From Lingula anatina (Eukaryota > Animalia > Brachiopoda): 64,000 nt of DNA. Below are positions 2,818-57,105 of the stretch, one piece after another (the stretch's first letter is position 1; each line of letters starts with the position of its first letter). The position numbers were made by a program, and so were the translations under genes. The stretch spans positions 47,036,788 to 47,100,787 of the forward strand of contig CM120640.1 in the NCBI GenBank assembly GCA_051362555.1. The letters are read 5' to 3'. The notes under the pieces were generated by a model that saw only the letters and a program-made list of their open reading frames with translations, had not been told where the DNA came from and ran no database searches.

Positions 2818-5800
2818 TTAGCCTATGTTCTTAATAGCAGTATTAAGTTGGGTCCACAATTCGCCCAGATCAGACTGGTAGGCGCCAACCACCTCCTTCA
2901 GCTCCTTCAACTTCTCTTCACCAGCTTCTTGAGTATGGTTAAGAACCTGGTAATAAACCGTGGGAATATAAATGTAATATATTGAAAAAAGCCGTGGAAA
3001 GTTATCCAGAAGATGTTATATTACGAGAATTAGCATGGCTAAGTGGGGAATGGTGTGGGATGCCTCTTGGACACTATAATCTGGCATGACTGCAGTATGA
3101 TGAATTAAATATAATAACAAATAAAAAAGTCTATGCTTAAAAGACCTAAGCTAGGACCTAACAATTCTTACATTATATTGGGTCCTAGACCTAAGCATAC
3201 ATGTGCATGTCTTCAGAATGATTCAAACAAGTACAAAGTTTACTTACGGTCGCAGTCATCAGCTTGATGTTATCCAAATGTCCTCTGGCTTCATCCACTC
3301 TAGCCCCAAGTTTGTCTTTGACAAATTTAGCAAGATCATCGTATTTACCCTTGAACTTTGCAAATACTGACTGCAAGCTGTCCACGAATTTAGCCCAAAG
3401 GGCTCTAGTTGCCCGTTTTCCTGAAAATATAAAAAAATGCAATTAAAAAAAGGAAATGGGGAAAATCACAGTTTTAGACAAGCTGCTTTGTTACCAGTTT
3501 TCCATTTTGTAATGAAAAATTTTTTTTTTTTTGGGGGGGGGGGGGGGGCGTTTAGATAGACCCGTTGATGGGCGTAGGATTTTTAGTGAGGTGCACGTGG
3601 GATGAGGATGGTGGATGTTCAAGGGTTATGCGTTTCAGGTTTAGAGACATTTTTAAGCTTTAAGAAACCAAGAGTTGGGCATTTTTTCAAAAAACTGCTG
3701 TGGTAGGAGCATTATTGATAGTTTCCTTACAGATGTGAATGGAGCAAATATTAAACTTCACATTTATTTTTGTAAATGTTGTCTTTTATTTATTTGTGCA
3801 ATTGCTAAAACAACGGCCATGTTTATATTGTTTTAAAATCTGAAATATATTGTAATTTTTCGGATTATTAAAATGGAAATAAAACTTGAAGATATGCCAA
3901 TCAAGTAAATACATTGTCACGAGTAAATCTACAAAACAAAAACCAAAACATACCGAAAATTCCCTTGAAAAACCCGAAAAACTTGTCAAACATAGATTTA
4001 AATGCTTTATAGAAGTTCTCTCTGATGCCCTGTAATTGTTGAAGAGTACTTTCAATGGCTTTCTTGGCGTCAGCTGTGAGTTTGCTAAGGATGTTCTTGG
4101 CGTCGTTGTAAGCTCCTTTGCCTTCTTCCTTCAACAGTTCGGTGTAGTTAGCGACATTCTGCAGCATGTCGTCAGTAACCTGAAGAAAGATCGATGTTAG
4201 ACGATCGATGCGATCATTTCTTAAAAGTATGTGTTGTTCCTTATTTGTTCTTTATAGACTAATAGTTAGCTGTTCTGAAAACATAAATTTAGGAATATGA
4301 AAATTTTATAGATTTATAATCAACAGTCAAAAAGGGAGAGCATAATGTTTTATAAGTCGCAGTAAAATGCGGTTAATTCACTTTTTTCTGTTGAAGTATA
4401 AATTTAAATGCTTATAAAAACAACTAGATACCTTAGCTCATAAAACAACAAAATATGTAAAACGTTAACAAAAAGTATACCTCGATAACTGAAAGTCAAT
4501 AGGTCGAAAGTGTTAAGATGTAAAAGTCGCATATGAATGTGTTTAGTTCATATTTTGTCTTAAAAACTAAATCCCACAGCGTGTCATGGCAAACACTTTG
4601 ATACCTTCTTTCCTTGTTCAACGGCGTTGTTTATTTGGTTAACAGTCGTCTGGAGAGCAGACTCCAAAGCCTTTCCCCACTCGGTCTGAACAGCACGAAG
4701 GACGCTGCAAAGCAAAATGTTTAAAACTGATAAAATACTTACCGCTTTTAATATTCATACGCCAATAACTTATCTATTTGATTATGTACAAAAACAGTTA
4801 AAAATACTTTATGAGGCGATAAACTCCAATCAACCCCTAGTCACTGGTCATATTAAAAAGATGATTAAGTCTGGCCCTTGTCATGCACGCCACCAAATTC
4901 GAGTAATGTCCAAAAATTCACGTAATTCCATATGTCAAAATAAATAAATAAAATAATAAAAGAAGAAGAAGAAAAATACTTACGCTTTCTTCTCTTCGTC
5001 CAAATCACGCTTGCTGATCTCCTCATCAAAAACGGATCTGAAAGCACGAACGGCAGCCTGGATCTCGTCCTCAGCAGCTGAAACATTACGATATATATAT
5101 TTTTGTGAAATATATGTAATATAAACCACGAACGGCAGCCTGGATCCTCAGCAGCTGAAACATTATGATATATGTAATACAGGGTAGTGTAGGCCTACAT
5201 CGAATGTAGTCACGAGTGGTGTATGCGTGTATCACATACCCATTTATTAAAAGTATAACTGCCGAAAATGAGTATAAAGGTGAATGCATGCACCTTTGAA
5301 ACAGACGCACAAGAAGATAAAAGTAAAAAGAAGCAGGGTAAAAAGAAGCAGGGTCGACATGCGATATACAAAGATTCTACTTGAAACATAACTTTATGTC
5401 TCTAATCCGACTTAAATAATAAGACGTGAGTATTAAAAGAATGGAATAAACTCAAGCATGGTGTTCGAAATATGGCCGATGACGGCCGCATTTATTGAAG
5501 GTCCCTCTAATAAAAGAAATGAAGCAGATAAGTGATAAACAATTAATAGTGTTGATTAATGATATTAACGTAACCAAACTTCCCTTGCATCTATAAAGGG
5601 CTATCGAGCATAAGACTGCATAGAATTTACTCGTCTTTGAAAAACTTACTTTGAATTCAATCGTCAAGATGCTGTATCCAAGTTTCAAGAGCGAACCTTT
5701 AATTAACATTTTAACTAACATTTTGTCTCATTCTGAGAGAAAACGCGTTCCCGGTTCAGGGGGTGGAGTACTTACATCCGGTCAGAGCAATTTGTTTGGC

Positions 5801-8391
5801 GTTTTTGGCGGCATTCACGACTTGGCCCCACAGGGTTCCAAGATCCTGCTTGTAGGGTCTCAAGAACTCGACAACCTCTTCGGTGACGGCCAGGCTAGCA
5901 TTCTTAGCGTGCTCAATGTACTGAAAGTGATCGATGGATTTCAACAGTTTGATGTTTTAATAGGTCGTATATAATTTAAATGATCCCTTAAGTGAAACAG
6001 ACATTTTACCTCCATAAAGCATTTATAGCAAGTTAAATTTATATAAACACGAACGTCTTTTTGGTGGGAAATATGTCTTGTACATTTTAACACCCATGGC
6101 AACACGTTAAAAAATACCTCTAGTGCAACAAGCTTGACGTTATCGAAGTGTCCCTGAACTTTTCCCCACAGATCTCCTGCGTACTGCTTAACAAAAGCCG
6201 AAAGGTCACTGAAACGTCCTAGGAGTTTAGACAAAGAGTCCTTCAAATTTGCCCACCAGTCAAGAACACCACGGTCAGCTAGAACCAGGGCGACGGTCTA
6301 GAATATAAATAAGGCTAAGTTTCTCGCCAAATAATATTAAATACGAATGAGAAAATGTATCAAGAATATGCTAGTGGTGTATGTCTATGGGGTACAGCCC
6401 TTGAGATACAAGGATAGCAGGTTCATCTAAAACGACGAAAAGATTTAATTATTCATTACTTGATAATAAAAATTGAGATCACGAACAGAGACGAAAGACT
6501 GCTAAAATATTCACTCGGATTAAACGATTTAATATTGATATAGTATATACGAATGATATACTGTTTTTGAAAAATGGATTACTAATATTGACAATGACCA
6601 TCTTGAACTAAAAGTATCAAAACGCCATCAACATGTTTGTTTCAAGTATTTATCGCGCTGCACATAGTTGCCCTTACCTCATCGAGGAGTTCTTGCTCGA
6701 AGTTTTCAAAGAGATCACGCTTGCCTGTAAAGTGAAGTAAATGAATAAAATTTAGAGATTACGCAATTGTTGAAAATTAAATGTACATGCAATTACTCCA
6801 TTTATTCCACGTGTACTTAAAACTTAAAGCTGCGTTAACCTTAGATCTAAAGAGGAAGAGCAATTCCTCATAAGTTCTTTTAGAAAAAAATATTTGCTTA
6901 ATTCTTAGAAACAAATTGCAGAGACGGATGAGCCAAGAAAGTGGTGAGGAGCACAGTTAATGCCTAATGCCTCTTTGAAATTGCAAAGAAACATAAAAAC
7001 GTCACTATCAGTATAATAGGACGCTGAAGAAATACCCAACGATTCATTCAACACCAGATTGACTTTTATCTCTTTAAATTAGATCTTGATTAAGGTAGAA
7101 ATGCAATGATAAGAACAATATTAAACTTACCAAAAATCCCGGCCACCCAGCCAGTGAAACCAGAGAGCTTATCTTTCAGACTGCTCAAAATGGCCTTGGC
7201 ATCGGCCAGGTACTTGCCACCAAGTGCCTTAAGCTGCTCAGTCAGCTCTTGGGCCTGTTCAAGGAGAGCCTTGCTGACCTTGAATAAATGTAATGTTAAT
7301 TATTTGTTAGAGGAAATCGCCGTCTTAGTAAAGTAAGCCTATGCGTATTATTTGGTGATTGAAAATTCTGAAACCAATTCAACCTTTAAAAAGACATAAA
7401 CGTAAATCATTTACTACATACAACGTTAATACCTTCTGTTCATCTATTTTTAATGATAATTCTCAAAATCATTTTAATGGGACGTATACATTCGCAAACG
7501 TACGTGGTGCGTTTTTTCTAGGGCTGAGTTTATCTTATCGGTGACATTCTTCAGTTTTTCCTCCAGCTGCTGTCCAAGAACAGTCTGAGTTGCCCTTGCA
7601 ATTCTGTAATCAACACGATCAAATTTCTTACTTCTTCAAGATTATCAATAATGGATTATCTCAATAGTATAAGCAAAAGTATGACTACGTATATCCGAGA
7701 TGATATGGACCACATAAACGACAGCTATTCAAAAACTTATTTCCAAAGAGAAAATAACTTAAATATTAATTACAAAGCAACTGCGATACATGTAGATCAC
7801 ACATATTGGTCACAATTATATGACGGCTGATACGTGATTAAGTTGGTAAGTAGTGATTTAGATTCTAGAAATAGTAGCTGTTACTTACGGGTTAGTATCA
7901 CGAATATGACGTGGTGAGTTGATTTCACTCACGAGAGAGGAAATCTCATTGTCCAGATTCACTGCAAAAAAAAAAAAAAAATGAATAGTCAGAAGGCATT
8001 TAGCTAATGACACATCGTGATCGTGGCTTTGAGAATGCTATCTATTATATTATATTATATTATATTATATTATATTATATTATATTATTATTTAGTATAA
8101 CGTCCTCTGTAAGATAAATAAAGTTTATTCTAAAAGTTTTACCCTAATGATTTAAAATTAATGATGTTTTGGTAAGTACCAAATGCATAAAAACAGAAAC
8201 GGATAGTTTTTTAAAATTTGAACCATCCACGAATTGCTGTTTGCTGCAAATAGAATAGGTCCAAGATACCAATACATATGTAACCATGAACATGTAACTG
8301 AAAAGAAAAAACTTAATAAACACTTACGGCGAACGAAATCGGCATGGGCACCAACAAAGGCGGCAACAAGTACAAGAAACAAGACCTTCAT
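2818..8391 (-). CDS. G1: secreted Cys-free amphipathic-helix polyprotein precursor (SP-pro-A1-GKR-spacer-B1-linker-A2-GKR-B2), 12 coding exons, 492 aa, intact
   Basis: Coding exons (minus): 8391-8328, 7961-7889, 7603-7504, 7278-7131, 6724-6678, 6297-6118, 5920-5776, 5077-4984, 4704-4605, 4179-3954, 3420-3248, 2946-2818. All introns GT..AG with compatible phases; 1479 nt open to TAA. Starts MKVLFLVLVAAFVGAHA (signal-peptide-like); sites RHIR, GKR x2, SKR. AATAAA at 2711-2716. Exon structure matches paralogs. Confidence 0.88.
8043..8090. repeat. (TATAT)n microsatellite in a G1 intron
   Basis: Pentamer repeat read directly. Confidence 0.85.
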
Positions 8392-19674: not shown

Positions 19675-22600
19675 CAAACAGCAGCACGAATCTCCCCAGC
19701 AGCTGAAACACTATGATATAGAAATGTAACATAAAGCACGAACGGCAGCCTGGATCTTGTCCTCAGCAGTAGTGCAAACAATGAATCAATAAAAAGTTTA
19801 AACAACATATATGGAAGATTGGAGACAAAATGACCAGCAATTGCTGTTGGATATATGATACAATTATGTGAAGGTAAGAGCGTAAACGAAGAAGATGAAG
19901 ATATATTGCGTTTCATACTTTTTTACCTTTTAGTTATTTTTAGATGCACAAGTCAATGCCATTTACTTAATCCAAATGCATTTGCTACAGCTTTTGATTT
20001 ACGTGGTTTGTACTTAATCCATTGTCATCTTCGCCCCCATGAGACCCAATTAATAAATTAGGTTATTTTTTATAGAAAAAAATTACCATCTTTGCTTTAA
20101 GCACACATAGTTAGGTTATTCTTTGTCGTATTCTTTGTCGTATCTCGAAAAAGCCAGACAACAATGATTTCTTAATCTCCATAACGAGCCTCTGCGCGTA
20201 ATGTCGACTTTGTACATTTTAGTCATTGCTTGTCAACTACATAACTCTAGATTACAAAACTTTCTCATTTGTCTCGAATTAACTAGTACTCTCCGTGTTC
20301 AAAGGCGCGTACTTGGGAGTACAGGGGGTGGGGTAAATCTGGGCAAGACAATGTGCTTTCTGTTGTAGGCAGCCTGCACCACCTGGGTCCACAGACTTCC
20401 AAGATCCTGCTTGTAAGGCTCCAAGAACTCCAGAAGTTCCTTAGTGACGGCAAGGCTAGCATCCTTGGCGTGGGCAAGGTACTGAAAGTGACATATTTTG
20501 TGAGTATACTTTATGTATCATGCACATGTGCTGAAGACATAATATTTTGTACTTGTAAGAAATCCCGAAAACGTAACAAGCAACGAAGGTTAAGCTAACT
20601 TACAAGCAATTCAAGAAGCTTAAAATAACCAACACATCATTGCATAAGTTGTGCAACTACAATTTTGTTACACGAGACAATCCATAATGAAATACACGTA
20701 CACCAAATGTCTGACACTGAAAAAAATTAGCAGTGTTTTTACCAACCATTACACAGTTGAAATGTGTGCTCAATTTTTTCAAATAATTTTTCATTACCTC
20801 TTGGGCAATAAGTTTGACGTTGTCGAAGTGTCCCTTGACTTTGCCCCACAGATCTCCAGCGTACTGCTTGATGAAGACTTGGAGATCAGCGAACTTGGAG
20901 GTGAATCCTCCCAGAGCCTGTGACAAAGTGTCCTTCACTCCCTGCCACCATTCAGCTACACCACGGTCAGCCAGAACCAGTGCCACGGTCTGATAATAAA
21001 TACAAACGATACAAATATAGGTTAAAAAATCTAATTCATCCAACTATTTCATGCACCCTAAGGCGGCGACATGGTACCAGAAAAAATATATCAACTAATA
21101 TAGGGAGAGTTTTGATTGTCATACTTAAGTATAAAAACTAAGTCTTGCCTTCTATGACTTTTTGTTAATGGAAGTATCCTCATAACATGAAACTGAATTG
21201 ATATGATGCCGACAGATTGACGGTCTTACCTCATTTAAAAGTTCTTCTTCGAAGTTTTCAAACAAATCACGCTTGCCTGAAAAAAAAAAGATGATATAAG
21301 GAAATGCACATTGAACTTTGCAAACTGACTTACACAAAGATGACATAAAGAAATGCACATTTTCACTCATTCTCAGTATACATGTATAGGTCCATTGAAG
21401 AAAACAGAAAAGTGCATATTTTACTTTTTCTAAATCTCTGATGACAGAAAGTGATAAATCTAGGATGTTTTAATAACTGTAAAAATCATGCCGTAGTAGT
21501 ATTGGGACGAAGTGACGAAGGTTTAGCCTATTTTGGTAACGAAAGTTTTAAAATAACCACCCTTTTGGATAATATTTACACGTTATTAATAGTAACAAAA
21601 ATATAGGGGTATTACGAGATGCACATTTACTTTATATTTACTTACTTTTTGTCCTCAACCTTAAGTTAATTTTTACTCAATGCCTTGTATCGAAGGTTTT
21701 GCAAATTACTTTCTACGAAAATGCAGCTTTGCCGTGTTACATCTAAAGTGACTGCGTCACGTCACCATATTCTCTTACTTATAATGAATAAAACTAAATT
21801 GAAGATTTTATTAACGGCTAAATGTTACAAAATACATAAGGCAACTGAAAGTAATGAAATTAGACACCATACTCGCTTCCTGACAAGTTGAAGATTTTCT
21901 TCTATAGTAAAAATGAACTAGATCGACTGGAGAGAAATGGTTCTGCAAGTGACTGTAAGGAAGATTTAAAATTGAGTATGTTTATGTTGTTTATGTGAGA
22001 ATAGATAAAGCTAGTGATTTTTATCGTATTTTTAAGTTCCTAGACTCATTTTAGCTTAAGACGAAAAACTAATTCAACAATCATGAAGTTGTTTCGTACC
22101 GAAAACACCCACGTTCTTTTCAAAAATGTATTTTAACTGTGCTTTGATTTCATTAAGGTGATTTTTAAGAGATACAAGTAGGTCCAAGGTGGTCAAATTT
22201 CGTAGAAGGGCAGGATGGGCTTCCAACCAGTGCTTGCCGCCCAATTGTTTCAGTGCCTCTAACAACTGATTTGACTGCTCTAGCAGAGCCTTGCTGACCT
22301 AAAGAAAGGGAATTAGACATGAATAGTTTCTGATTTATATTCAGACATTTCGATTATGATGTGTTATCATCGCCAGTTTTATTAAATAAGATTATTGCAA
22401 AAAAAAAACAGTATTTAAATCAGATAAAAAAAGTGTTGAAAGGTAATTCACATTTAACCGTCAATGTCATTCCAAAAATGTCATATCAAATTGCTTCTGC
22501 CGCTGTATTTGGGGCGGTTGATGAGTCTGTATCATGTACGACAAACATCAGTCCTTCATAAAACGTCACCAGTAGCAAATGCAAAGTATCCTAAGACAAT

Positions 22601-23515
22601 TTCAATTTAATTTAAACATATTCTATTCTACGTATTCTACTTCTATGATTCACATTGAAAGCATATCAATATCATCTGCGTCATGGACTTAAAATGAAAT
22701 CCCCATCCTTAATTTAGTACTTTAGTATATTAATAATGTAAAAGAAATCACTGACCGTGCGGCCGGTTGCCACAAGATTTTTGATTTTGTCTGTGACGTT
22801 CTTCAGTTTCTCCTCCAGTACCTGGGACAGGACAGTCTGGGTGGCTCTCGTAAGGCTTTTACAAGTGTCAAATATTAAACTAAACAACTTATTTAACACA
22901 ATTGTCCTACTTCAAGTTTTCAATCAATAACACTTGAATTATTTTTAAAATATTAGACTGAAATACAACGCTCTCCTGAAAATCACCTCTGCTTTGAAGT
23001 TAAAATAGTTAACTTTTACTGTAGATACAATAAGTTCAAATTCGTTATTAACAACTATAATTTTCAGTTGTTAAATTTTTGTAAGGAATACCGCTGCCAA
23101 TTGTGTTTGTGCAACGTTACCCGCCCCTGTTGATGACATCCAGCTGCAAACTTTATTCTAAAAACTGTATCTGTCTTAAATCTCTGGTACTTACGGGTTG
23201 GTTTCGCGGACATGGCGTGGAGAATTGACTTCGTTCACGAGAGATGCAATCTCATTGTCCAGATTCACTAATGGCATGAATCCAAAACCAATAAAATTCT
23301 ATGTAACTAATATTTATACTAACACATCAGTGTTTTATGCCCAAAGAATTGTTTGTTAAAATGAAGAAAAGATAAGTTCAAACTGTATTCAGATAAAGCT
23401 GAACAAATCCAATCGAAATACTTGCAAATAATGTAAAAGTATTCCACTTACGGCGGACAAAATCAGCCTGTGCTCCAATGAAGATGCCGACAAATACGAA
23501 GGCCAAAAATTTCAT
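12804..23515 (-). CDS. G2: paralog lacking module A2 and the N-half of B2 (in-frame deletion), 9 coding exons, 359 aa; last intron holds nested transposons
   Basis: Exons 23515-23452, 23267-23195, 22855-22756, 22298-22100, 21276-21230, 20989-20798, 20481-20313, 19597-19509, 12950-12804. GT..AG boundaries; 1080 nt open from MKFLAFVFVGIFIGAQA to ...TKAALAGN*. Confidence 0.75.
13274..14389 (+). CDS. DIRS Gag-like protein (ORF1)
   Basis: Intact ORF (first ATG 13274; ORF track from 13250) with RPKNC..L...KTN..VW, D.KLQ..Q, LLGHAN, LFGDD motifs and an RG-rich tail; lies upstream of and overlaps pol. Confidence 0.85.
   Translation: MAAESTCSAVLPGLSKPAIDTCKNSEDVKAKKVKTRTGKGKLDDKAKSSHNSDEYLTIMKNIQGTVQRQETNINSVVGRIDTLEKQYLYHDEYCEENYDFDEQYDERLEDETCPEAGTSSTNRFDDMTKRYKLIEYTDVEVDSVLASSVNDLFTNGIVDHSKYTELTKDENNSRPKNCESLVIVKTNKMVWNIIPQYAKTNDKKLQDVQMSVVKAATLMTKGIDKLAKLETGNDTSEGLGKLIDMFNDSIALLGHANTQINCFRKDLLKPNLKPEYKPLCNHNIPCTTFLFGDDITKSAREVEDSAKMSYKMMQSRMGLDYRNRPYQRGPRFRGRMRGRYNPGRGSSSQRGAHADSKNFSWQSSQWDQNRY
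14353..16443 (+). pseudogene. DIRS pol (reverse transcriptase, RNase H, DNA N6-adenine-methyltransferase-like domain) with two premature stops
   Basis: ORFs 14353-14826, 14830-16122 and 16147-16443 share one frame. Motifs: SPIFVRPKKNG, ILNLKKLN, IDIKHAY, GFIDD; TDAS, HINALE, SDN; DLFASRLN, YLFPPF. Stops TAA 14824-14826 and TGA 16120-16122 (the latter at the W of AP.WP.Q.W). Confidence 0.9.
16011..17249 (+). CDS. DIRS tyrosine recombinase (probable start ATG ~16266)
   Basis: Intact ORF with YR motifs R (ATRVQT), HSVR, AGW and TFAKFY; overlaps the 3' end of pol in another frame. Confidence 0.9.
   Translation: MGNTELCLSVSTFQFAGSLYPEDSQRQSQGYYSGSCMTNTDMVCKVDGITCGKPNSHSKEKRSANFTREQAPSGTSSYGQVETHCMQSIREQFRERGLSEQSTHILMSSWRTGTKKQYNVFIKRWFKYCGERKINSISPHVEEVIEFLTKQFNDGLAYDSLNTARGAISSMGIQIDGVSAGSHPLVIRYMKGIYNLRPPRQCYAQIWDVNKVLVFLRKLSPVKHLTLKDLTLKLTMLMALINATRVQTLHLISVVDMKKLSSEFVFQLCGLLKQSRPGCNSSHIVFKAYPPDRRLCVYTVLKEYIARTKTLRRHNVDKNLLISYMKPYKPVQRDTISRWIKVVMTKSGIDTTLFGAHSVRAAAVSKAKMNSVPVTDILNKAGWSTEKTFAKFYEKQIEDKATTFEYGVLKRK
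17403..17526 (+). repeat. DIRS internal complementary region (ICR)
   Basis: First part is the reverse complement of the left terminus (~12997-13037), second part of the right terminus (~17724-17809), joined through a single AAT. Confidence 0.92.
19605..19670. repeat. (TA)n microsatellite; others at ~17589-17623, 37784-37830, 45861-45900
   Basis: Read directly. Confidence 0.9.
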
Positions 23516-28905: not shown

Positions 28906-29804
28906 GGGTCCTTATTTTTTAACCAATGAAGTAGCCTTCTATCATGAAGTAGTAATTCTTATTCTATGAAGTGGTAATTCTATCGCATCAGAAGGTAATA
29001 GACTCATCGAAGAATCTTGAATTGAAAAAAGAACCCTTCGTTTTGGATGTATAAATTTTGCTCGTTTTAATTTCCCCAAATGCCTGTTTGCATTTTAATA
29101 CTTCTAAAAGGCCAGTGCTATTTTTCAACAGCATTTTACCTTGAAGAAATCTTTGGATGCAGCTTGGTCTCTGGAAATTTGATCACTCTTTTCAACTTTT
29201 CTGTCGTCTTTTAAAATATTTTTACACATTTGTGCTTATGTCTTATTGTAAAGCGATATTTTACAAGGCAATTGACCGATCTGCATTTTGACAAATTCCA
29301 TATTTTTTCCTACCAACAAACTCCCCACCTCTTATCAGTATTATTGTGTAATAATATAAAGATTTAAGTTAAGACTAACTATTTTATCTAAAATACTTTT
29401 TCAATTCTTCAATGTTTTCATGTAGTAATTTTAAAGGCCATCAAGTTTCCCAAATATAAGTGTTGTTTTGAATTGGTTACCAAACATGTTTTCACAGGGG
29501 TAAAATTAATTTTGTTATGCATTGTATTTCAAAGAACTTAGGGATTTTCTAAGTTTGAACTCACAAAATAGCAGCCTGGAAGTTCTTACATTGCCTTTTA
29601 TAACAGCTCAATGTCGCATGGGAAAATGCTTTTCAGAAATAATGAATAAAAAGTACCCCTGTTTAACAATATACCACCGAGAAACATCAAATTCAGTTTT
29701 TTATTTCCCACCAAACTGTTTGGATATTACAATAAACGTCGAGATTTGCCATTATGTTAAACAAAAATTAGTTGGATCCTTTAAAACGTAAGAATTGAAC
29801 TTGT

Positions 29805-30694
29805 TTAGTATCCAGGTAAAGCAGCCTTAGCCTGAGCAATGGCATCCAGAAGCTGTTGCCACAAATCCCCCAGATCGGACTTGTAAGGAGCCACAACCTG
29901 TTTAAGTTCCTCGAGCTTGTCAAGACCGGCCTGTTGAGCATTTTGTAGGGCCTAGAACATAATATAAACGTTATTGTAAATATATTAATATTGCAATTCG
30001 AACAATGTTTTATATCAGTATATAACCAAATTACAGAAATTTACTCACTGTTGTGGTCATCAGTTTGATGTTTTCAAGATGTCCTCTGGTCTGGTTCAGA
30101 GCCTCACCAGCCTTCTCCGTCACGTATGCTACAAGGTCAGCATATTTCACCTTGAGGTTGTCCAATACATCTTGTAAGGTGTCTTTTACTTTCGCCCACC
30201 AATCTCGAAGTCCTCTCTTGCCTTTGAAAAATGATAGCAGATGAAATATGCATATAATCATATAATGTGAAGTAGATAACTTATTGCATTACCACAATGA
30301 TATTCACATTGGAGTAAGTTAACCGTCAAATATTCTGCTTTATGAGAAACATACACCGAAATCAGAAAAAAAAAGATCTTTAAAGATGCATTTGAACGAC
30401 TTGGCATGTCAAATCTTTGCTCTGAAGAAATACTACAGGTTATCGCTTGTGTCATATAGATAAGCTATTGGAAAAATTAGCAAAAAGACTCTGGAGTCCT
30501 TTGAAGAAATTGTCGGCAAGATCCTTGAAAGCAGCGGTGAACTTGTCCTTCAGGCCACTAAGAGACTTGAGGCCGTCCTTGGCCTGGGCAGTGAGGGCAC
30601 TCAGAATCTGCTTGACGTCGGTGTATGTTTGGGCTCCCTGCTGCTTCAACAACTCGGTGTAGTTGGCAACCTTCTCCAGCATCTCACTGGTGAC
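29805..30694 (-). pseudogene. G3: 5'-truncated paralog with only the last three exons
   Basis: Exons 30694-30481 (donor mutated to CT, 12 nt deletion), 30221-30049, 29951-29805. No upstream exons or TATA box found between ~30800 and ~34530, where homology to the far-upstream region resumes. Confidence 0.8.
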
Positions 30695-31584
30695 CTAAAT
30701 TTTAAATAAGAAAAAAATCAATTAAATTCAGTGATCACCATTTCATCATTAGCAAATTATCATTTCTTTATTAACCAATAATTATTGTTCCGAGTCCATA
30801 CAGTAGTAATAAAAATTAAGTTTCCGTTGTACGACGTTTTAAAAACGTCAGAAACGTTTTAATCCCTATCCTATGAATAGAAGGGGGCGGACAAACAATG
30901 GAGAGCCGTCTAATCCCTTCAAAATTCGAACGCCAAAACACAATAGTTTAGACGTAATAACACACAATACCTTAGGCGAGTGAACCCCATGACGCCTGTT
31001 TCTGTGGTCCAGCGCGAGCGCGACAATCCGCTGTGACCAGGTGTAATTAACAGCAGGATACATCAGCCAGAAGGTGCCTATTGTTTGTTGCGGCGATAGG
31101 ATTATAGCTTTAAGATGCTAGAACCCATGCTAACGAGTGCCACTCCCGTGGCCACCTATCCTTTTGTTCACTAGCTTGGCACGCGCAGCAGATCATGTTT
31201 TAATTAAGTGTTGCAAGAAAACTGCTAGTTTAATTTAGTATCAGTTATTTAATTCAATATGAAGTGTTCTGTGGTCAAAAAATGAACTTGATAGACATGC
31301 ATCAGCATCGTACATCAGCACGATCAACAAATCACCCCTTCTCAAAAAGTTTAAAGATGCTCCGTACACAAATTTCCATCATCGCTACCTGTGTAAAAAT
31401 AGAGTACTGTTTAGAAATAACAAAGAAAGAAACATTATTAAAACAATTTATTCAAATTACAAGCTGACGTGTTGCCTCAATTACTACATTAAGTTACATT
31501 TTATATAAAATAATGGAGCGAATCCGTAAAAGGATAATAATAGAAAGTCTTAATAATAAATAAATAAATAAATAAATAAATAAA

Positions 31585-35170: not shown

Positions 35171-35179
35171 GCACTTTTA

Positions 35180-40193: not shown

Positions 40194-41478
40194 TATCTTT
40201 TGAAATTTGGACTTTTCATTACATGATTACAAGACATGTTTGTGCGGAATCAAACCAATGTCAGCTTTCACCAAAGCCACCCACGTCATGAGGCTAGGAC
40301 TTACAGGTATCTTTATGGCTTGGCTAGACATTGTTATCAAATACATGTACGTATCCCACCACCACCACCACTGCCTCACAAGCAACACACACATTGAAAA
40401 TTTTTTGTGATAGTCATTCATAGCTTCATTCTGTATATGTATACGACTACAGCTACATTATTTGGAAATTTGGCTCGCCCCTAGTAATACAAAGAAGGAA
40501 AACAAGAGGCGGACTGGTTGTTTGCTATTTCCACCAAATCCCTCTAATACATCAGTGTGAGATTACACTAAAATTGAATATTTGTGTGAAGACTTAATTT
40601 TTCATCATTTTGAGTTTTTAACCAATAAAAAAGGGTAGATCCCTGTCTGGCAAATACGGTTGTAATTTTCTATCGCATCAGAAGGTAATAGACTCATCGA
40701 AGAATCTTGAATTGAAAGAAAGACCTTAGTATCGGATGTATATATTTTGCTCGTTTTAATTTCCCCAAATGCCTGTTTGCATTTTAATACTTCTAAAAGG
40801 CCAGTGCTATTTTTCAACAGCATTTTACCTTGAAGAAATCTTTGCATGCAGCGTGGTCTCTGGAAATTTGATCAATATTTTCAACTTTTCTGTCTCCTTT
40901 TAAATTATTTTTACACATTTGTGCTTATGTCTTATTGTAAAGCGATATTTTACAAAGCAATTGACCGATCTGCATTTTGACAAATTCCATATTTTTTCTT
41001 TTAACAAACTCCCCACCTCTTATCAGTATTATTGTGTAATAATATAAAGATTTAAGACCAAATATTTTATCTAAAACATTTTTTCAATTCTTCATTGTTT
41101 TCATGAAGTAATTTTAAAGGCGATCAAATTTCCCAAATATTAGTGTTGTTTTGAATTGAATATCAAACATGTTTAAAATAAATTATGCATTAAGTTATAC
41201 ATTGTATTTCAAAGAACAAGGAATTTTCTAAGTTTGAACTCACAAAATAGCAGCCCGAAGTCCATATATTGTCTATTAGAACAGCTCAATGTCGCATTGG
41301 AGAATACTTTTCGGAAATAATGGATAAAAATTACCCCTGTTTAACAACACCGTGAAACATCAAATTCAGTTTTTTTATTTCTCATGAAACTGTTTCAATA
41401 TAACAATAATGTCGAAAATTGTCACTATTACAAAATTAAGTTACACTGGATCCTTTTAAACGTATAAGTTGAAGTTGT

Positions 41479-44400
41479 TTAGTATCCAGGTAAAGCAGCC
41501 TTAGTCTGAGCAATGGCATCCAGAAGCTGTTGCCACAAATCCCCCAGATCGGACTTGTAAGGAGCCACAACCTGTTTAAGTTCCTCGAGCTTGTCAAGAC
41601 CGGCCTGTTGAGCATTTTGTAGGACCTAGAATATGATATAAACTTTGCTGTAAATATACATATACTGAAATTTTAACAACGTTCTATATCAGTATATAAC
41701 CAAATTACAGAACTTTACTTACGGTTGTGGTCATAAGTTTGATGTTTTCAAGATGTCCTTTGGTCTGGTTCACAGCGTCACCAAGCTTCTCCTGCACGTA
41801 TGCTACAAGGTCAGCATGTTTCACCTTGAGGTTGTTCAATACGTCATTTAAGGTGTCTTTTACTTTCGCCCACCAATCTCGAAGTCCTCTCTTGCCTTTT
41901 AAAAACGATAGCGGATGGAATGTGCATATAATCGTATAAATACAATAATATTCATATTGGATTAATTTTAGCATCAAATCTCCCGCTTTATGAGAAAATT
42001 ATACAAATTGCACGTGTATCAGTAATGCGTCATACATTACGTTATTTGGCGGATTTTTACGAACTGGAGAGAGGATAAGTACCTGTACGTCAAGTTCGAA
42101 AAAGGTACAGCTTCTTTTCTTTTCTTAACTAAACAAACCGTCATTTCAGAATATCAAATGACTTGGAAAACTTACCAAAAAGACTCTGGAGTCCCTTGAA
42201 GAAATTGTCGGCAAGATCCTTGAAAGCAGCGGTGAACTTGTCCTTCAGGCCACTTAGGGACTTAAGGCCGTCTTCAATGGCTTGCTTGGCTTGGGCAGTG
42301 AGGGCACCTAGAATCTGGTCTGATTCACGGCTTCACCAAGCTTTCCCTTCACGTATGCTACAAGGTTAGTATATTTCCCCTTGAAGCTTTTCATTACATC
42401 ACCCAATGTGTCTTTTACTTTCGCCCACCAATCTAGAAGTCCTCTCTTGCCTTTGAAAAATGATAGCACATGAAATTTATACATACAATAGTATAACGCT
42501 TAAGCAGATAACTTATTTTATAACCACAATGATATTCATAGTGGATTCATTTTACCATCAAATCACCGGCTTTTTGAGATAGGCCTACTTATACTGAAAT
42601 TTTAAAAAGATGTTTACAAATCCATTTAAAGCGAGTTGAAATTTGAACAGATCGTGTATTTTTTTTTCTGTGCTAAATATAACCCTCGGTCTTTTTCGCC
42701 AAGCCCCATTTAAATAATTATGCAATAGCGCGTGTAGTTGGCAACCTTGGTGACCTAAATTTTAAATAAGAAAAAAAGAATCAATTAAATTCAATGATCA
42801 CCATTTCATAATTAGCAGATTATCATTTTATTATTTACCAATAATTAATGTTCCGAATCCATATTCCATTTAAAAAAGCAAGAAAATGATCCATTGTGAT
42901 ACGCAATTGGCCAAATCAACTTATAAAATTGATAAATGTTATCCATTTGAAGATACACGAATGAGACCAATGGAATCCACCCACTGAAATCAAAGATAAG
43001 TAAGAAAAACTGAATAGAAAAACTGATAGTAAAAAGAACATTAGAATTAAAAAGGCTCTCTGTGTGTCATCTCCCCGTCACTTTTTGTCCAATATAACAA
43101 AACTTCACGGCAGTATCCCCCATACCTTCTGTTCATGGGCCACGGCAGAGTTAACCTGTTCTACGGCCTCCAAAGACTTTCCAAACTCAGTCTGGGCAGC
43201 GCGGAGGACACTTGGATTAGAAAATAGCACCTTGCAATAGGCATAAATCGGTGTGACGTTCCAAATATAGCTTACCTTAAGATGAGCAATAATAATATTC
43301 CTACAGTTTTTTTTTACCATGTCAGCGCTAGTCAGCGACTTTAAAAACATGCGTAGAACGTGTAAACGATCAAAACGATTATCATATCTGGGAATCGATA
43401 AGTAGTCACTTACGCTCTCTTCTCCTCGTCCAAATCACGCTTGATTTCCTCATCAAAAACAGACCTGAAAGCACGAACTGCAGTCTGGATCTCGCCCTCA
43501 ACAATAGCAGCAGCTGAAACATTGTGATATATATAAATATATACGTAATATATAAACCACGTCCTCAGCAGCTGAAACGGTGCGAATAATAAATCAATAA
43601 AAAGATAAAACGATATCTATGGAAGATTGGAGAAAAAACGAACAGCGATTACTGTTAGATATGTGACATGAGCATGTTGAGGTGAGTGTTTTGACGAAGA
43701 AGATGAAGATAGATTGATTTTGCGTTTATTACTTTTGGCTCTTTTTTAGATGCGCAAGTCAATGCCATTTACTTTATCCAAATCCATTTGCTACAATTTT
43801 TAATTCGTCTGGTTCGAACTAAATCCATTGTCATCCTCGCCACCTTGAGACCTCGTGCGCAGTGTCAAAATTCAATACAGATTATGTGTTTATTCATTGC
43901 ATATCGATATTTGTAAATACATATTCTATGAATCAAAAATAAATTATATTATTTTTTATAGAAAAAAAATGCCATCTTTGCTTTAAGCACACAAATAAAT
44001 TAATGTGAAGAATCGAATGGACAGAAAGCAGTCAGAGGTGGTTCACTCTTATTACAACGTAAAACGTATGTTTTTTAACAATTTATTTGTTATTTCATTA
44101 TTCTTTTCCTTATTTCGAAATACCAAACCACAATGATTTCTTTGTGGATCGGAGTGTTTCTTTCGGGGCGGATAAGTGGCAAAATTTTCTATTAGAAAGT
44201 ATGCTGATTGCGCCGCGTCACGTTGCATCGAAACTTTTCTTTTGGCGGACGGTCGTACAACTGTAGTTTCCCCTCTTTGTTTATTTCAGAAGATTGCGCC
44301 AAAATGTATTTCTAGATAATGGATAATTTTCATGTTTTTTTCCGGATTTATTCAAGTCAATGACATTAGCGCGTTATGTCAAATCGTTCGTTTTTCATGC

Positions 44401-45858
44401 ATAATATAAATGCTTTAAACATTTTATTTCTTATAATTGCTCACCACCTACATAACTCTTGTTTTCAAAATTCGCTCATTTGTCACAAATTAACTTGCAC
44501 TGTCCGTGTTTATCAATAAGATTAAAGAGGCGTAGTTGGGGGTACAGAGGGTGGAGTAGATCCGGTCAAGACAATGTGCTTGACGTTGTAGGCAGCCTGC
44601 ACCACCTGGGTCCACAGACTTCCGAGATCCTGCTTGTAAGGCTCCAAGAACTCCAGAAGTTCCTTGGTGGCGGCAAGGCTAGCATCCTTGGCGTGGGCAA
44701 GGTACTGAAAGTGACAGATTTTGTATTGATTGAAGGTTACTTATGCTGTAGAGTTACTATATTTCATGCGCATGTGCTGAAGACATAATATTCTGCACTT
44801 GTAAGAAATTCCGAAAACGTAGCAACAAAAGTTAAACTAAATTACAAGCAATTTTAAGTCTTAGTTAAAAGAGGCTAAAAATAGGCACATCATTGCAAGT
44901 TGTGCAACTAGAGTTTTGTTACACGAAACAAACCATGCTGAAATACACATACACCAAATGTCTGGCACTGAAAAAATTAGCTTTTTTTTTTTAAACTATT
45001 ACGCAGACGAAAAGTGTGTTCGAATTTTTCAAATAATTATTCATTACCTCTTGGGCGATGAGCTTGACGTTGTCGAAGTGTCCCTTAACTTTGCCCCACA
45101 GATCTCCAGCGAACTGTTTGACGAAGACTTGAAGGTCAGCGAACTTGGAGCTGAAACCTCCCAGAACCTGAGAAAAGGTGTCCTTCACTCCCTGCCACCA
45201 TTCAGCTACACCACGGTCAGCCAGAACCAGTGCCACAGTCTGATGGTATATACAAAACGATACTGTTTTCGGTAAAGAACCAATTCAGCCAAATAAATTG
45301 CACGCACCCTAAACCGGCAACGTGATACCATGGCAGAAGTAAATATCAACTAATCAAGAGAGTGTTTTGATCGTTAGACTTAAGAATGTAAAACCTAAGT
45401 CTTACCTTCTATAACCCCCTTAGTAAAAGTACCTTAACAATTTAAAACAGAGCTGATTTGATGCCGACAAATTGACGTTCTTACCTCATCCAAAAGTTCT
45501 TCTTCGAAGTTTTCGAACAAATCACGCTTGCCTGAAAATAAACAAAGATGAAGTAAAAAATGCACATTGAACTTTGCCAACTGAGTTTTCAAAAAGCTCT
45601 GTAATTCAACGAAATTTCACTTCATATGACTAAAAGGCTTTGATTCCGGTGTAACGTGTAAGTTCCCCATGATAGGGTGTCCGCTTCCCATTCATTTGCA
45701 CAGGTAAGCCTCGCCTAAGATTTTGACCCACATAGGTCAGATGTCCATTATAACTAAATGGAGGGCGGACTTTCTGTTACACGGACCCTCAGTTTCGTTA
45801 CATCCGGCGCGTTTGACACAATGGCTTTGATAATGGTCACAAAGCTGCAATATGATAG

Positions 45859-45902
<44 letters not shown>

Positions 45903-48042
45903 AAGTTCAGAAACGCCAAGTACCAATAAAGAGCCTTGTACTAAAATGAAATGTGATCCACCGAACAGCATGTTCTTTGTTTTAAGAATTTGCACTTCAC
46001 AAATGGTCTTAATAGAATTTGCTTGTCTCATCTTATGGTGCCGTATTGTATGCGGTCTTGCTAAGACAGCATAAACACACCGATTTGCTATATGCATTCG
46101 ATCTCAACTTTACAGATAATGCATATTTCAAACGATAAATAAACATTTAAGATACAGTAAATAAGTATTTGATTCGTACCGAAAAGACCACCGAACATGT
46201 CCAATAAGCCTTGGAACCAGCCAGAAAATTGGCTCTTCAGTGTGCTAAGGATAGCCTTGGCGTCGGTCAGGTACTTGCCGCCCATTTCTTTAAGTTGATC
46301 TGCAATCTGCTTAGCCTGCTCTAGCAGGCCCTTGCCGACCTAGAAAAGAAGGCCAATTTGAGATGAAACATTTCTATCCAGTCAAAATTCAAAATACGTC
46401 ACAAGCAGCAAATGCATAGTGTCTTTAGATATTTTTTATCGAACTTAGATTTAAAGAATATGAATATTGTCTGGCTCATGGACTTAAAATGAAATCAGAT
46501 GTCCTTACTTTTGTACTTCTGAACATTGATAACGTAAAAAAAATCTCATACCACGTGACCGGTTGCCACAAGACTGTTGATTTTATCTGTGATATTCTTC
46601 AGTTTCCCCTCCAGTACCTGACCCAGGACAGTCTGGGTGGCTGTTGTGAGGCTATAACAAGTATCAATTCTTAATACTAAACATTTAATTTAACGCACAG
46701 GCCTTGTTTTATGATTTTCAATTAAATACGCTTTAAAATAATTGAAAGATTAGACTTATATCCAACCAAACAGCTGCTCAAAGCACTTCCCCGCTATGAA
46801 AATTAATTCAAAATTCTGTAAACACCAAATTAAAATAGCTACAATTAAAACCCAACAACTTTCCATTAATTTCACTTTCCATTTATTTCTTTTTATTTTT
46901 ATCCGGACTACCGTTTATATTTGAGCATGGAATGTTTATGGCATCTAGCTACAACCACTAGAACGCGTAAGAGCAGGTTGAATATCAAACTTCTGCCGTA
47001 CCAGCACGAAAAATCAATGCGACAGCACGTTTTTATGCGTTACGGGCTCGGCACTGAACGGTCGCAACGGTACTAACATTGATGGTCCTCATAATAATGC
47101 ATCTGTCTTAAATTTCTGGTACTTACGGGTTGGCTTCGCGGACATGGCGTGGAGAATTGACTTCGTTCACGAGAGCCGCAATCTCATTGTCCAGATTCAC
47201 TAATTACATAAATCAAAAACCAATTAAATTGCAATTGTGTTACTAACACATCAGTGCTTTACTGCCAAAGAATTGTTTATTAAAATGAGGAAAAGCTAAC
47301 AAGTATAAAATGATGAGAAAAAGTAGTTTAATCAGATACATCTAATGCTGAACAAATCTACAGGGTTACTACTTAATATGGAATAACTGCCCTGGCCTGC
47401 AAACTCCCCAGATATGAGCCCAATTAAAATCTGTGGGCGGAAGTAACTCACAGAATTAATAGCTATGGTCATCGACCGGTAAATAGTGATGAACTGCGAC
47501 AGGCAAATATCACTGCGTGGAATGGAATCCCCATCCAAACTCTAAAAAAACTTGTCACAGGGTATGCCATGTAGGATGAGGGCGCTGCGAGCGGCTGCTG
47601 GAGGTCATACCCGCTATTGATGACTTTCATGATTTACTGTAATGAGTTCGTTGACTGTGTAACGTATCACTGTCCGGAGGCTATCATTTTCTTTAATATC
47701 TTAGCTTAAAATTAATACTGACATCGAACTGTTGATATGGTTTTCTGGGGGTGTTCTTTTCTTTTGAATGACATCTTATGTCAGATTTGATATTATTGAC
47801 AAAAATATCTCACAACAGAAGACTGGATATTTTTTATCACTCAGTGACATACTTTTTTGATGAATCAAGCCAAAAAAATTATTAATCAGCGCTCAAATAA
47901 AAAACATTCCCTATTAAGTAGTAACCCTGTACATTGTAACCTTAATACTTGCAAGTAATGTAAAACTCATCTACTTACGGCGGACAAAATCAGCCTGTGC
48001 AACAACGAAGGTGGCGACGAGTACGAAGGCCAAAAACTTCAT
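41479..48042 (-). pseudogene. G4: rearranged chimeric paralog, probable pseudogene
   Basis: Exons 48042-47979, 47199-47127, 46651-46552, 46339-46180, 45531-45485, 45239-45048, 44704-44536 (donor GT>CT), 43513-43414, 43210-43126 (15 nt deletion), truncated exon 42754-~42732, extra B2 exon copy 42450-42314 fused out of frame to the A2 exon 3' half (to 42176), then 41895-41723, 41625-41479. Confidence 0.8.
47361..47929 (+). mobile_element. Internally deleted Tc1/mariner element in a G4 intron
   Basis: 24 bp TIR CAGGGTTACTACTTAATA(T/G)GGAAT, TA flanks, transposase C-terminal relic LPWPANSPDMSPI...MPCRMRALRAAAGGHTRY*; absent from the same intron of G2 and G5. Confidence 0.85.
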
Positions 48043-52107: not shown

Positions 52108-54746
52108 TTAGTATCCAGGTAAAGCAGCCTTAGCCTGAGCAATGGCATCCAGAAGTTGTTGCCACAAATCCCCCAGATCGGACTTGTAAGGAGCCACAAC
52201 CTGTTTAAGTTCCTCGAGCTTGTCAAGACCGGCCTGTTGAGCATTTTGTAGGACCTAAAATATGATATAAACTTTGCTGTAAATATACATATATTGAAAT
52301 TTGAACAACGTTCTATATCAGTATATAACCAAATTACAGAACTTTACTTACGGTTGTGGTCATAAGTTTGATGTTTTCAAGATGTCCTTTGGTCTGGTTC
52401 ACAGCGTCACCAAGCTTCTCCTGCACGTATGCTACAAGGTCAGCATATTTCACCTTGAGGTTGTTCAATACGTCATTTAAGGTGTCTTTTACTTTCGCCC
52501 ACCAATCTCGAAGTCCTCTCTTGCCTTTGAAAAATGATAGCAGATGGAATGTGCATATAATCGTATAAATACAATAATATTCATATTGGATTAATTTTAG
52601 CATCAAATCTCCCGCTTTACGAGAAAATTATACAAATTGCACGTGCATCAGTAATGCGTCATACATTACGTTATTTGGCGGATTTTTACGAACTGGAGAG
52701 AGGATAAGTACCTGTACGTCAAGTTCGAAAAAGGTACAGTTTCTTTTCTTTTCTTAACTAAACAAACCGTCATTTTAGAATATCAAATGACTTGGAAAAC
52801 TTACCAAAAAGACTCTGGAGTCCCTTGAAGAAATTGTCGGCAAGATCCTTGAAAGCAGCGGTGAACTTGTCCTTCAGGCCACTTAGGGACTTAAGGCCGT
52901 CTTCAATGGCTTGCTTGGCTTGGGCAGTGAGGGCACCTAGAATCTGCTTGGCGTCGGTGTATGTTTGGGCTCCCTGCTGCTTTAACAGCTCGGTGTAGTT
53001 GGCAACCTTCGCCAGCATCTCACTGGTGACCTAAATTTTAAATAAGAAAAAGAATCAATTAAATTCAAAAATCACCATTTCATCATTAGCAAATTATCAT
53101 TTCATTATTTACCAATAATTATTGTTCCGAGTCCATATGTCTTTTTAAAAAAGCAAGAAAATGATCCATTGTGATATGCACTTTGCCAAATCGACTTAAA
53201 AATTGATAACTCTTATCCATATGATACATGAATGAGATCAATCGAGTCCAACCACAGAAATTAAAGATAAGTTAGAAAAACTTATACTAAAAAGAATATT
53301 AGAACTAAAAACACTCTGCGTGTGTCATCTCTTCGTCACTTTCTGTCCAATATAACAAAACTTCACGGCAATATTCCCCATACCTTCTGTCCATGGGCCA
53401 CGGCAGAGTTAACTTGTTCTACGGCCTGCTGGAGGGCGGTCTCCAAAGCCTGTCCGAACTCGGTCTGCACAGCGCGGAGGACACTTGGAATAGAAAATAG
53501 CACCTTGCAATAGGCATAAATCGGTGTGACGTTCCAAATATAGCTTACCTTAAGATGAGCGATAATAATATTCCTACATTTTTTTGGCCTTTTTGAATAT
53601 TTCTGAATATTTACCATGTCAGCGCTAGTCAGCGACTTTAAAACATGCGTAGAAGGTGTAAACGATCAAAACGATTATCATATTTGGGAATCGATAAGTA
53701 TAGTCACTTACGCTCTCTTCTCCTCGTCCAAATCACGCTTGCTGATCTCCTCATCAAAAACAGACCTGAAAGCACGAACGGCAGCCTGGATCTCGTCCTC
53801 CACAGCAGCAGCAGCTGAAACATTACGATATATATATATATGTAATATAAACCACGACCTGTAGTCTGGATCTCGTCCTCAGCAGCTGAAACACGAACTG
53901 CAGTCCGGATTTCAACCTCAGCAGCTGAAAGATTATTATATATGCACTGTATGTAATATATAAAGCACATACGGCAACCTGGACATCGTCCTCTGCAGTT
54001 GAAACGGTGCGAACAATAAATCAATAAAAAGATAAAACTATATCTATGGAAGATTGGAGAAAAAAACGAACAGCGATTACTGTTAGATATGTGACATAAG
54101 CATGTTGAGGTGAGTGTTTTGACGAAGAAGATGAAGGTAGATTGATTTTGTATTTATTACTTTTAGCTATTTTTAGATGCACAAGTCAATACCATTTACT
54201 TTATCCAAATCCATTTGCTACAAGTTTTAATTCGTCTAGTTCGAACTAAATCCATTGTCATCCTCGCCACCATGAGACCCCGTGCGCAATGTCAAAATTC
54301 AATACAGTTTAAGTGTTTAAGTTTGCAAATCAAAATCTGTAAATACTTTTAATACATATTCTATGAATCAAAAATAAATTAGATTAGAAAAAATTTCCAT
54401 CTTAAGCACACAAATAAATTAATGTGAAGAGTGAAGAATTGAATGAACAGAAAGCAGTCAGAGGTGGTTCACTCTTATTACAACGTAAAACGTATCTTTT
54501 TTAACAATTTATATTGTTATTTCATTATTCTTTGACTTATTTCGAAATACCAAACCACAATGATTTCTTTGTGGATCGGAGAGTTTCTCTCGGGGCGGAT
54601 GAGTGGCAAAATTTTTGTATTAGAAAGTATGCTGATCGCGTCGCGTCGCGTTGCGTCGAAACTTTTCTTTTGGCGTATGGTCGTACTAGTCTCCCCTTTC
54701 TGTTTATTTCAGAAGATTGCGCCATTGCGTATTTCTATATAATGGA

Positions 54747-54777
<31 letters not shown>

Positions 54778-57058
54778 GCGTCTGGATTTATTTAAGTCAA
54801 AGGCATTTGCTCACGCCCGTGATGTCGAATTATGCGTTTTTCATGCATAATATAAACGCTTTAAACGTTTTTTTTTTCTAATAATTGCTCACCATCTACA
54901 TAAAACTTGTTTTCAAAATTCGCTCATTTGTCACGAATAAACTTGCACTGTCCGTGTTTATTAACAAGATTAAAAACGCGTACTTGGGGGCACAGGGGGT
55001 GGAGTAGATCCGGTCAAGACAATGTGCTTGGCGTTGTAGGCAGCCTGCACCACCTGTGTCCACAGACTTCCAAGATCCTGCTTGTAAGGCTCCAAGAACT
55101 CCAGAAGTTCCTTGGTGACGGCAAGGCTAGCATCTTTGGCATGGGCAAGGTACTGAAATTGACAGATTTTGTATTGATTGAAGGTTACTTATGCTGTAGA
55201 GTTACTATATTTCATGCGCATGTGCTGAAGACATAATATTCTGTACTTGTAAGAAATTCTGAAAGCGCAACAAGCAACGAAGGTTTAACTAAATCACAAG
55301 CAATTGTAAAGTCTTAGTTTATGAGGCTAAAAATAGGCATTGCATCATTGCAAGTTGTGCAGCTAGAGTTTTGTAACACGAAACAAACCGTGTACTGAAA
55401 TACACGTACACCAAATGTCTGGCACTGAAAAAATTAGCTGTGTTTTTTTTCAAACCATTACGCAGATGAAAAGTGTGTTCGAATTTTTCAAATATTTTTT
55501 TTACCTCTTGGGCGATGAGCTTGACGTTGTCGAAGTGTCCCTTAACTTTGCCCCACAGATCTCCAGCGTACTGTTTGACGAAGACTTGGAGATCAGCGAA
55601 CTTGGAGGTGAATCCTCCCAGAACCTGGGACAAAGTGTCCTTCACTCCCTGCCACCATTCAGCTACACCACGGTCAGCCAAAACCAGTGCCACGGTCTGA
55701 TGGTATATTAAAAAAGATACAATTCTGCATTAAGGAACTAATTCAGCCAACTATATTTCATGGCAAAAAAATATATCAACTAATCTAGAGAGTGTTTTGA
55801 TCGTTAGACTTAAGTATATAAAACTTAACCTTCTTAGTAGAGGTACCCTAAAAATAAAAATAGAACTGATTTATTGCCGACAAATTGACGTTCTTACCTC
55901 ATCCAAAAGTTCTTCTTCGAAGTTTTCAAACAAATCACGCTTGCCTGAAAATAAACAAAGATGAAATAAAAAAAAATTCACATTGAACTTTGCCAACTGA
56001 GTTTTAAAAAAGCTCTGTAATTTAACGAAATTTCACTTCATATGACTACTTTTTATTGATTCCGGTGTAACGTGACAGAGAGTTCCGCATGATAGGGTGT
56101 TCGCTTCCCATTCATTTGCACAGGTAAGCTTCGCCTAAGATTTTGACCCACATAGATCAGATGTTCATTATACCTAAATGGAGGGCGGACTTACTGTTAC
56201 ACGGACCCACGGACCAAGTATCAACCCCAACTCTGAGTTTTACGAAGGTATTCTAGAAGGTATGCCCGATAGTCAAGAAGTGTTTATTTTCAGATCTCGT
56301 GTTTTTTTTAAATTTATTTATTAATTTTAATTGTGCGTAAATGCTCCGGACAGTTGCGCACTCTGTACCACACCCATATGTATATATATATTGGAGTTCA
56401 GAAACGCCAAGTCAGAATACAAACACAGACACATACACACATACACACACACACACAGAATGTCCTTCGTTTTAAGAAGTTACCCGCCACAAATGGTCTT
56501 AACAGAATTGGCTTGACTTACTATATGGTACCGTACTGTATGTGGGCTTGCTAAGACAGCATAAACACACCGATTTACTGATGCATTAAACTTTACAGAT
56601 AATATATATTTCATAATAGAAAAACATATAAGATACAGTAAATGTGTATTTGATTCGTACCGAAAAGACCACCGAATGCGTCCAAAAAGCCTTGGAACCA
56701 GCCAGAAAATTGACTCTTCAGTGTGCTTAGGATAGCCTTGGCGTCGGTCAAGTATTTGCCGCCCATTTCTTTAAGTTGGTCTGCCACCTGCTTAGCCTGC
56801 TCTAGCAGGCCCTTGCCGACCTATAGAGAAGAGCCAATTTGAGATGAAAAGTTTCTGATTTCTATCGAGTCTTTACCATAAAAGTACAAACAAACTTTGG
56901 TAATTCATAACACGTCACGAGCAGCAATTGCAAAGTGTCTTTGGATATTTTTTTAATCGAATTTAGATTAAAAAAATATGAATATTGTCTGGCTCAGGGA
57001 CTATAAATGAAATCCGATGTCTTTATTCTTGCACTTCGATCTGTACATTGACAGTGTA

Positions 57059-57105
<47 letters not shown>

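Follow-up and report, generated by a model that had tools for sequence, protein, structure and literature searches.

This locus of Lingula anatina raises the question of what the Phe-rich ends of its A modules do, i.e., whether they are membrane-inserting segments of antimicrobial peptides, as an initial annotation proposed, or serve a different function. The split Gly codon of the A2 module of one gene, G1, begins at position 3954 on the minus strand. The window, which is the whole 64-kb stretch of DNA analysed, holds six tandem copies of this family, G1 to G6; G1 and G5 are intact four-module genes, G2, G4 and G6 are two-module frames, and G3 is a three-exon remnant. The features of G1 are as follows.

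2818..8391, minus strand: G1, intact, 12 exons, 492 aa (gene model; exon-only minus-strand RNA cover in run X1).
4179-3954, minus strand: G1 exon 10, carrying the A2 end (gene model).
3955..4020, minus strand: G1 A2 tail, residues 371-392, a Phe-rich amphipathic helix (gene model and physical scoring).
3421..3953, minus strand: phase-1 intron splitting the A2 Gly codon between base 3954 and bases 3420-3419 (gene model; spliced in 6 X1 reads).
3395..3420, minus strand: Gly remainder, Lys-Arg and the G1 B2 start, ATRALW (gene model).
7131..7170, minus strand: G1 A1 tail and the first base of its split Gly (gene model).
6253..6270, minus strand: putative G1 B1 start, GVLDWW, behind a single Arg (alignment with B2 starts and K-R-bearing relatives).

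All 11 introns of the assembled G1 open frame have AG/GT boundaries. The encoded protein consists of a signal peptide (called by eye from the gene models), a pro-piece ending in R-H-I-R, A1, G-K-R, an acidic spacer, a single Arg and B1, followed by a spacer with K-R, A2, G-K-R and B2. The B1 start relies on one Arg (A-D-R) at a place where a related group carries K-R, and is thus a cleavage start predicted by sequence comparison. The B modules had been described as beginning with GVLDWW, GVAEWW or GLRDWW; the pattern G-x-x-WW is present in B1 of G1, G2, G4, G5 and G6 and in B2 of G3, G4 and G5, but the description does not extend to G1 B2, which begins with ATRALW.

Four raw L. anatina RNA runs (X1, X4, X7 and X8) were aligned to G1. 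Exonic reads were found in one of the four, X1, while those of X4, X7 and X8 were all repeat-derived and lay outside exons. X1 yielded 87 reads of 12.4 million on G1, a low expression. Six X1 reads with five different starts cross the A2 junction, joining 3953 to 3419 (CT..AC), and the A1 junction, which carries a different tail, is crossed by two. Since 62 of the 87 reads are only 90-95% alike to G1, they demonstrate that a G1-type gene is transcribed, which need not be G1 itself; a paralog or a diverged animal may be their source. Among the variants listed in X1, 17 of 26 variant codons are synonymous, and the A2 tail has one synonymous change and one Lys-to-Asn change. Additionally, the splice donor after B1 (5775, 44546, 54983 and 60910, minus strand) decides between the two- and four-module forms; G5 has it intact, G4 and G6 lack it, and in G1 it is moved upstream, while three X1 reads splice at its downstream position.

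In the window, all nine A ends finish with F-G-K-R, the Gly codon being split in phase 1, as the initial annotation had stated, and the five tails that it quoted from G1, G5 and G6 all match the sequence. The intron that splits the Gly codon has a GT donor at eight of the nine ends, with the exception of G3, where CT is found. None of the six unspliced frames contains F-G-K-R; thus, the motif arises only through splicing. The amidation signal at the A ends is real, kept in 9/9 and spliced in RNA at a G1-type junction, while the amide itself is predicted. The remaining copies are located as follows.

20299..23515, minus strand: G2, open 285-aa A1-B1 frame, with broken A2/B2 exons downstream (gene model).
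29785..30714, minus strand: G3 remnant, last three exons only, A2 tail donor CT instead of GT (gene model).
41459..48042, minus strand: G4, intact 272-aa A1-B1 protein, A1 tail at 46181-46231 (identical to XP_013400977.1, P0003).
52108..57962, minus strand: G5, intact, 12 exons, 517 aa, four modules, A1 tail at 56662-56712 and A2 tail at 52806-52868.
60897..63111, minus strand: G6, two-module, first exons not found within the window, A1 tail at 62548-62598 (gene model).

The A1 end of G2 is longer and divergent, yet finishes with F-G-K-R, its donor lying after 22100; the exon concerned (22100-22298, minus strand) carries about 40 unrelated in-frame codons and still closes with V-F-G-K-R. In G4, a chimera that joins a B2 start to an A2 end, and that begins with GLLDWW, takes the place of the A2 exon (42176-42451, minus strand), and the exon preceding it has a 15-nt deletion. 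A retrotransposon (13238-17246, plus strand) with reverse transcriptase, RNase H and Dam-methylase matches, which we take to be DIRS-like by its layout, sits between the broken B2 exon and the last exon of G2. Tandem arrays occupy 35179-37004, their units measuring 161 nt and about 338 nt.

Hydrophobic-moment analysis bears out the physical description of the tails as aromatic and amphipathic, with muH values of 0.49-0.71. In the nine A modules scored, G2 aside, the tail ranks 1-3 for Wimley-White interfacial partitioning among the 18-mers of its module (9/9), and the last 18 residues rank 1-2 for hydrophobicity. Up to seven aromatics lie on one tail face, above the rest of the module. The net charge of the last 18 residues is +3 in G1 A2, the sole clearly cationic tail (muH 0.71), and otherwise +1, 0, -1 or -2, with an anionic A1 tail in G4, G5 and G6. 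The divergent G2 tail lacks this preference for membranes (Wimley-White +4.4). The B starts have a high rank by hydrophobic moment; by interfacial partitioning, their rank varies from 2 to 29 and is high only in G1. The interfacial ranks of the A tails, which the G2 tail and most B starts do not share, make a membrane-anchor role plausible.

The tail is the final helix of a family-wide A module. No basic site upstream of the tail shared by G1 and G5 was found; without such a conserved site, a free tail peptide is unlikely and the tail would stay on its module. Release of a free tail was thus rejected for want of a conserved cut site. The A and B modules are 86-109 aa long, and 15 of them have a net charge of -2 to +2 and a pI of 5.6-8.9; the G2 A1 module has +4 over 103 aa. 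The high interfacial ranks of the tails, the near-neutral modules and the missing release site support our preferred, tentative reading (probability roughly 0.45), in which the tails would be the lipid anchor of convertase-processed, apolipoprotein-like proteins that bind lipid surfaces. It would build on the intact genes, the spliced F-G-K-R and the transcription of a G1-type gene. By established chemistry, a convertase would cut after K-R, a carboxypeptidase would trim the basic residues and PAM would turn the Gly into the amide. The attached A tail would then dock first at the lipid-water interface, amidation having removed its terminal negative charge, and the remaining amphipathic helices of A and B would spread on the surface and carry or solubilise lipid or microbial lipid. 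The subfamily-specific tails would set lipid preference, held by purifying selection.

Exchangeable apolipoproteins feature an 11/22-residue repeat periodicity. The Pfam family Apolipoprotein (PF01442) is the best match for P0002 (E 2.3e-8; 34.4 bits against a cut-off of 90 bits) and was detected at E at most 1e-3 in 12/22 relatives, the best of which scored 53.9 bits, also under the cut-off. The family profile matches apoA-IV (3.7e-6) and apoA-I best among natural PDB entries, with a designed helix bundle ranking above apoA-IV. Strong amphipathicity was observed in 21/41 18-mers, with a helical period of about 3.64 (3.62-3.67), not heptad, which would suit such repeats, compared with 3.5-3.8 in unrelated controls. 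Lys and Arg lie at the face boundary and Asp and Glu opposite, with a gap of 34-36 degrees that 0/2000 and 0/1000 shuffles reach. The charge layout corresponds to class A as defined in PMC7451220, where the Phe-rich amidated 4F peptide is described as forming lipid discs. The same class A gap (38 degrees) was found in nine unrelated long helical proteins, a biased control, as these were picked by the same profile, and the pattern is absent in two of six single relatives (chiton and limpet). Given these controls and the two relatives without it, the pattern carries little weight.

Taken as sequence comparison, the matches to PF01442, apoA-IV and apoA-I, the amphipathicity and the class A layout would support the lipid-anchor reading. 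Nevertheless, the Pfam scores below the cut-off, the designed bundle above apoA-IV and the non-diagnostic pattern and period count against it, and the apolipoprotein likeness may be compositional. The family resembles the exchangeable apolipoproteins (apoA-I, apoA-IV and apoE of PF01442, and apolipophorin-III of PF07464) in being secreted, Cys-free, near-neutral and all-helical, with class A-type charges, a period near 3.64 and weak sequence matches. In contrast to them, the Lingula genes encode a precursor of several modules that carries basic cut sites and an amidation signal, and score below the Pfam cut-offs; no fold match stood out, and homology with them is conjectural. The A2 tails are also similar to the apoA-I mimetics 18A and 4F in being Phe-rich amidated 18-mers with Lys at the boundary and Asp opposite (PMC7451220). 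The mimetics, however, are synthetic free peptides, and what they share with the tails is physical in nature and not evolutionary. In insects, apolipophorin-III both carries lipid and has immune roles (PMC7226336); thus, the lipid-carrier and defence readings are not exclusive.

In an AlphaFold model from 90 sequences (pTM 0.37), residues 201-260, the last 60 of B, form a small bundle with pLDDT 94-97, and the A tail, with pLDDT 46-55 in this weak model, has no confident packing. An earlier fold from 15 sequences had a pLDDT of 41. Fold searches with the model, which is confident only at 201-260, gave a best Z of 6.4 and no match of at least 8. The contrast between the unplaced A tail and the confident B end would, in the model, support a lipid anchor. 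It also bears on a structural or storage role, in which A and B would form a soluble helical bundle or a fibre, mucus or egg component, with the tail packed on protein. This role would suit relatives that repeat A or B many times, as building blocks do, the confident folding of the C-terminal part of B and the generic nature of the class A pattern; however, the tail lacks confident packing even in this weak model (pTM 0.37), a buried helix would not need a conserved amidation signal, and the aromatics are concentrated on one tail face. We regard such a role as quite unlikely.

Regarding the proposed kinship with linear helical antimicrobial peptides, the modules are too long (86-109 aa) and too near neutrality (-2 to +4), and this claim is not upheld. 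Spider linear peptides have 18-48 aa (at most 62-79), charges of +4 to +8 and a pI above 9.5 (PMC7889660). In the same source, the precursors of spider linear peptides (cupiennins and cyto-insectotoxins) share with the Lingula genes a signal peptide, acidic linkers, basic sites, several Cys-free helical products each and a C-terminal Gly for amidation. The Lingula modules differ from the peptides so described (PMC7889660) in length, charge (net -2 to +4) and pI (5.6-8.9), and no sequence match between Lingula modules and spider linear cytolytic peptides was found. The mismatch in length and charge means that membership among spider-type linear peptides fails.

Membrane-lytic defence remains the main rival to the lipid-anchor reading, and we consider it unlikely. 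In this proposal, A, alone or with B, would insert its amidated tail and permeabilise microbial or predator membranes by hydrophobicity, not charge. The spider-like layout of the precursor (PMC7889660), the six tandem copies with gain and loss, and the cationic G1 A2 tail with its high moment would fit such a function, and acidic spacers, amidation and tandem expansion, being also typical of defence-peptide precursors, weigh against a lipid carrier. Against lysis stand the neutral modules, longer than any linear peptide in PMC7889660, the anionic A1 tails of G4, G5 and G6 and the lack of a release site.

The variation of the tails points both ways. The initial annotation held that the tails vary among paralogs, which is correct between subfamilies and not within them, where variation is low. 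Between the G1 type and the G5/G6 type, tail identity is 0.29-0.57 compared with 0.59-0.69 for the bodies, with a 4-residue indel, and this divergence of tails beyond bodies favours lytic defence. Within types, tail identities are 14/14, 12/14, 16/18, 14/18 and 21/22, about equal to those of the bodies or higher, and in the sole unsaturated tail comparison, G4 with G5, dN/dS is 0.44 for the tail and 0.09 for the body, based on very few changes; both observations speak against it. In comparisons between paralogs, dN/dS, for which the annotation had suggested a per-site analysis, was below 1 where measurable. Positive selection on the tails was rejected as unshown, dS being saturated between subfamilies. 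From these alignments, the history of the tails appears to be one of subfamily divergence followed by conservation, and an arms race is not supported.

The proteins nearest to G1-G6 are the L. anatina RefSeq models LOC106166856/857/861/863, LOC106159938 and LOC106174647, all uncharacterized; those retrieved are two-module or partial, and none has four modules. They belong to the same family as G1-G6, XP_013400977.1 corresponding to the first half of G4. Word-index searches recovered Lingula alone or two subgroups, and the family surfaced by a full HMMER profile scan of 1.84 billion proteins, with 112 matches, nine of which were removed by eye as unrelated long helical proteins and then served as the controls for the class A pattern and the helical period. 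The named relatives (7/20 looked up) are from Lingula, the chiton Liolophura, the limpet Patella, the nemerteans Tubulanus and Lineus, and two chelicerates, the horseshoe crab Tachypleus and the spider Larinioides; all of these are annotated as uncharacterized. Profiles from which Lingula or its nearest group had been left out still gave 58-67 bits for the Lingula A modules and 65-99 bits for the B modules, compared with 25 bits or less for reversed or other-type modules, so the homology within the family is real. In a quick tree of the B modules, which is unrooted and poorly resolved, a spiralian group stands apart (SH-aLRT 96) from the chelicerate-side rows. An ESM Atlas lead to an envelope glycoprotein (0.83) was rejected as chance level, all leads being below 0.9.

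The architecture AB is found in 52/119 cases, the others reaching six B or six A plus B. P0007, P0008, P0015 and P0019 have six or four B only, or long A runs before one B, which indicates free module shuffling. In the chelicerate-side P0014, P0023 and P0027, a third helical module stands between A and B, where Lingula has a short acidic spacer. Between the A and B modules of P0011 lie a short neuropeptide-like amidated unit, present twice, and two amidated units rich in Leu and Gly.

A hydrophobic-Gly-dibasic end is present in 21/114 A cores and in 20/83 proteins, namely five from Lingula, 11 from one close-relative group, one each from the chiton and the horseshoe crab, and two others. The recurrence of such ends in chiton, horseshoe crab and three further lineages would, at the sequence level, support the lipid-anchor reading; the 93/114 A cores without the signal, the G2 tail, and a low expression, exonic in one of four runs of unspecified tissue and unlike that of a bulk carrier, argue against it. 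The same distribution touches on a signalling role. Phe-amide ends are typical of neuropeptides, and amidated neuropeptide precursors yield short peptides sharing a C-terminal motif. The amidated end might accordingly be a receptor-binding epitope on a helical scaffold, as in peptide hormones, a role suggested by the Phe-amide-type end, by the two short amidated units of P0011 and by the invariance of F-G-K-R alone. Nevertheless, beyond the last Phe the paralogs have no common motif, the products are 86-109 aa long and most relatives lack the amidation signal, which makes signalling very improbable.

No Pfam entry above the cut-off was found for the family, no description of it in the literature searched (subscription journals and bioRxiv supplements being outside its scope), and no mention in the supplement of PMC4595640. 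A broader, rather doubtful extension of the lipid-anchor reading would see an ancient protostome family of exchangeable-apolipoprotein analogues, made as polyproteins whose shufflable A and B modules would be separated by cleavage in the secretory pathway; in several lineages, A would be capped by an amidated aromatic anchor, and the subfamily-specific sequence of this anchor would choose the lipid target. The targets could be lipid of the animal itself, LPS of microbes or a membrane that is to be lysed, and the products would be neutral two-module effectors, distinct from cationic antimicrobial peptides.

The prediction defines the mature products precisely, and the tail is a sub-feature of the larger result, a secreted family that spans chelicerates and spiralians and has neither a name in the records retrieved nor a Pfam entry above the cut-off. 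If the lytic proposal were true, the family would represent a non-cationic two-module effector class. If lipid binding is true, the family would add small exchangeable apolipoprotein-like proteins from animals other than insects and vertebrates, and their production as amidated polyproteins would be an unusual route.
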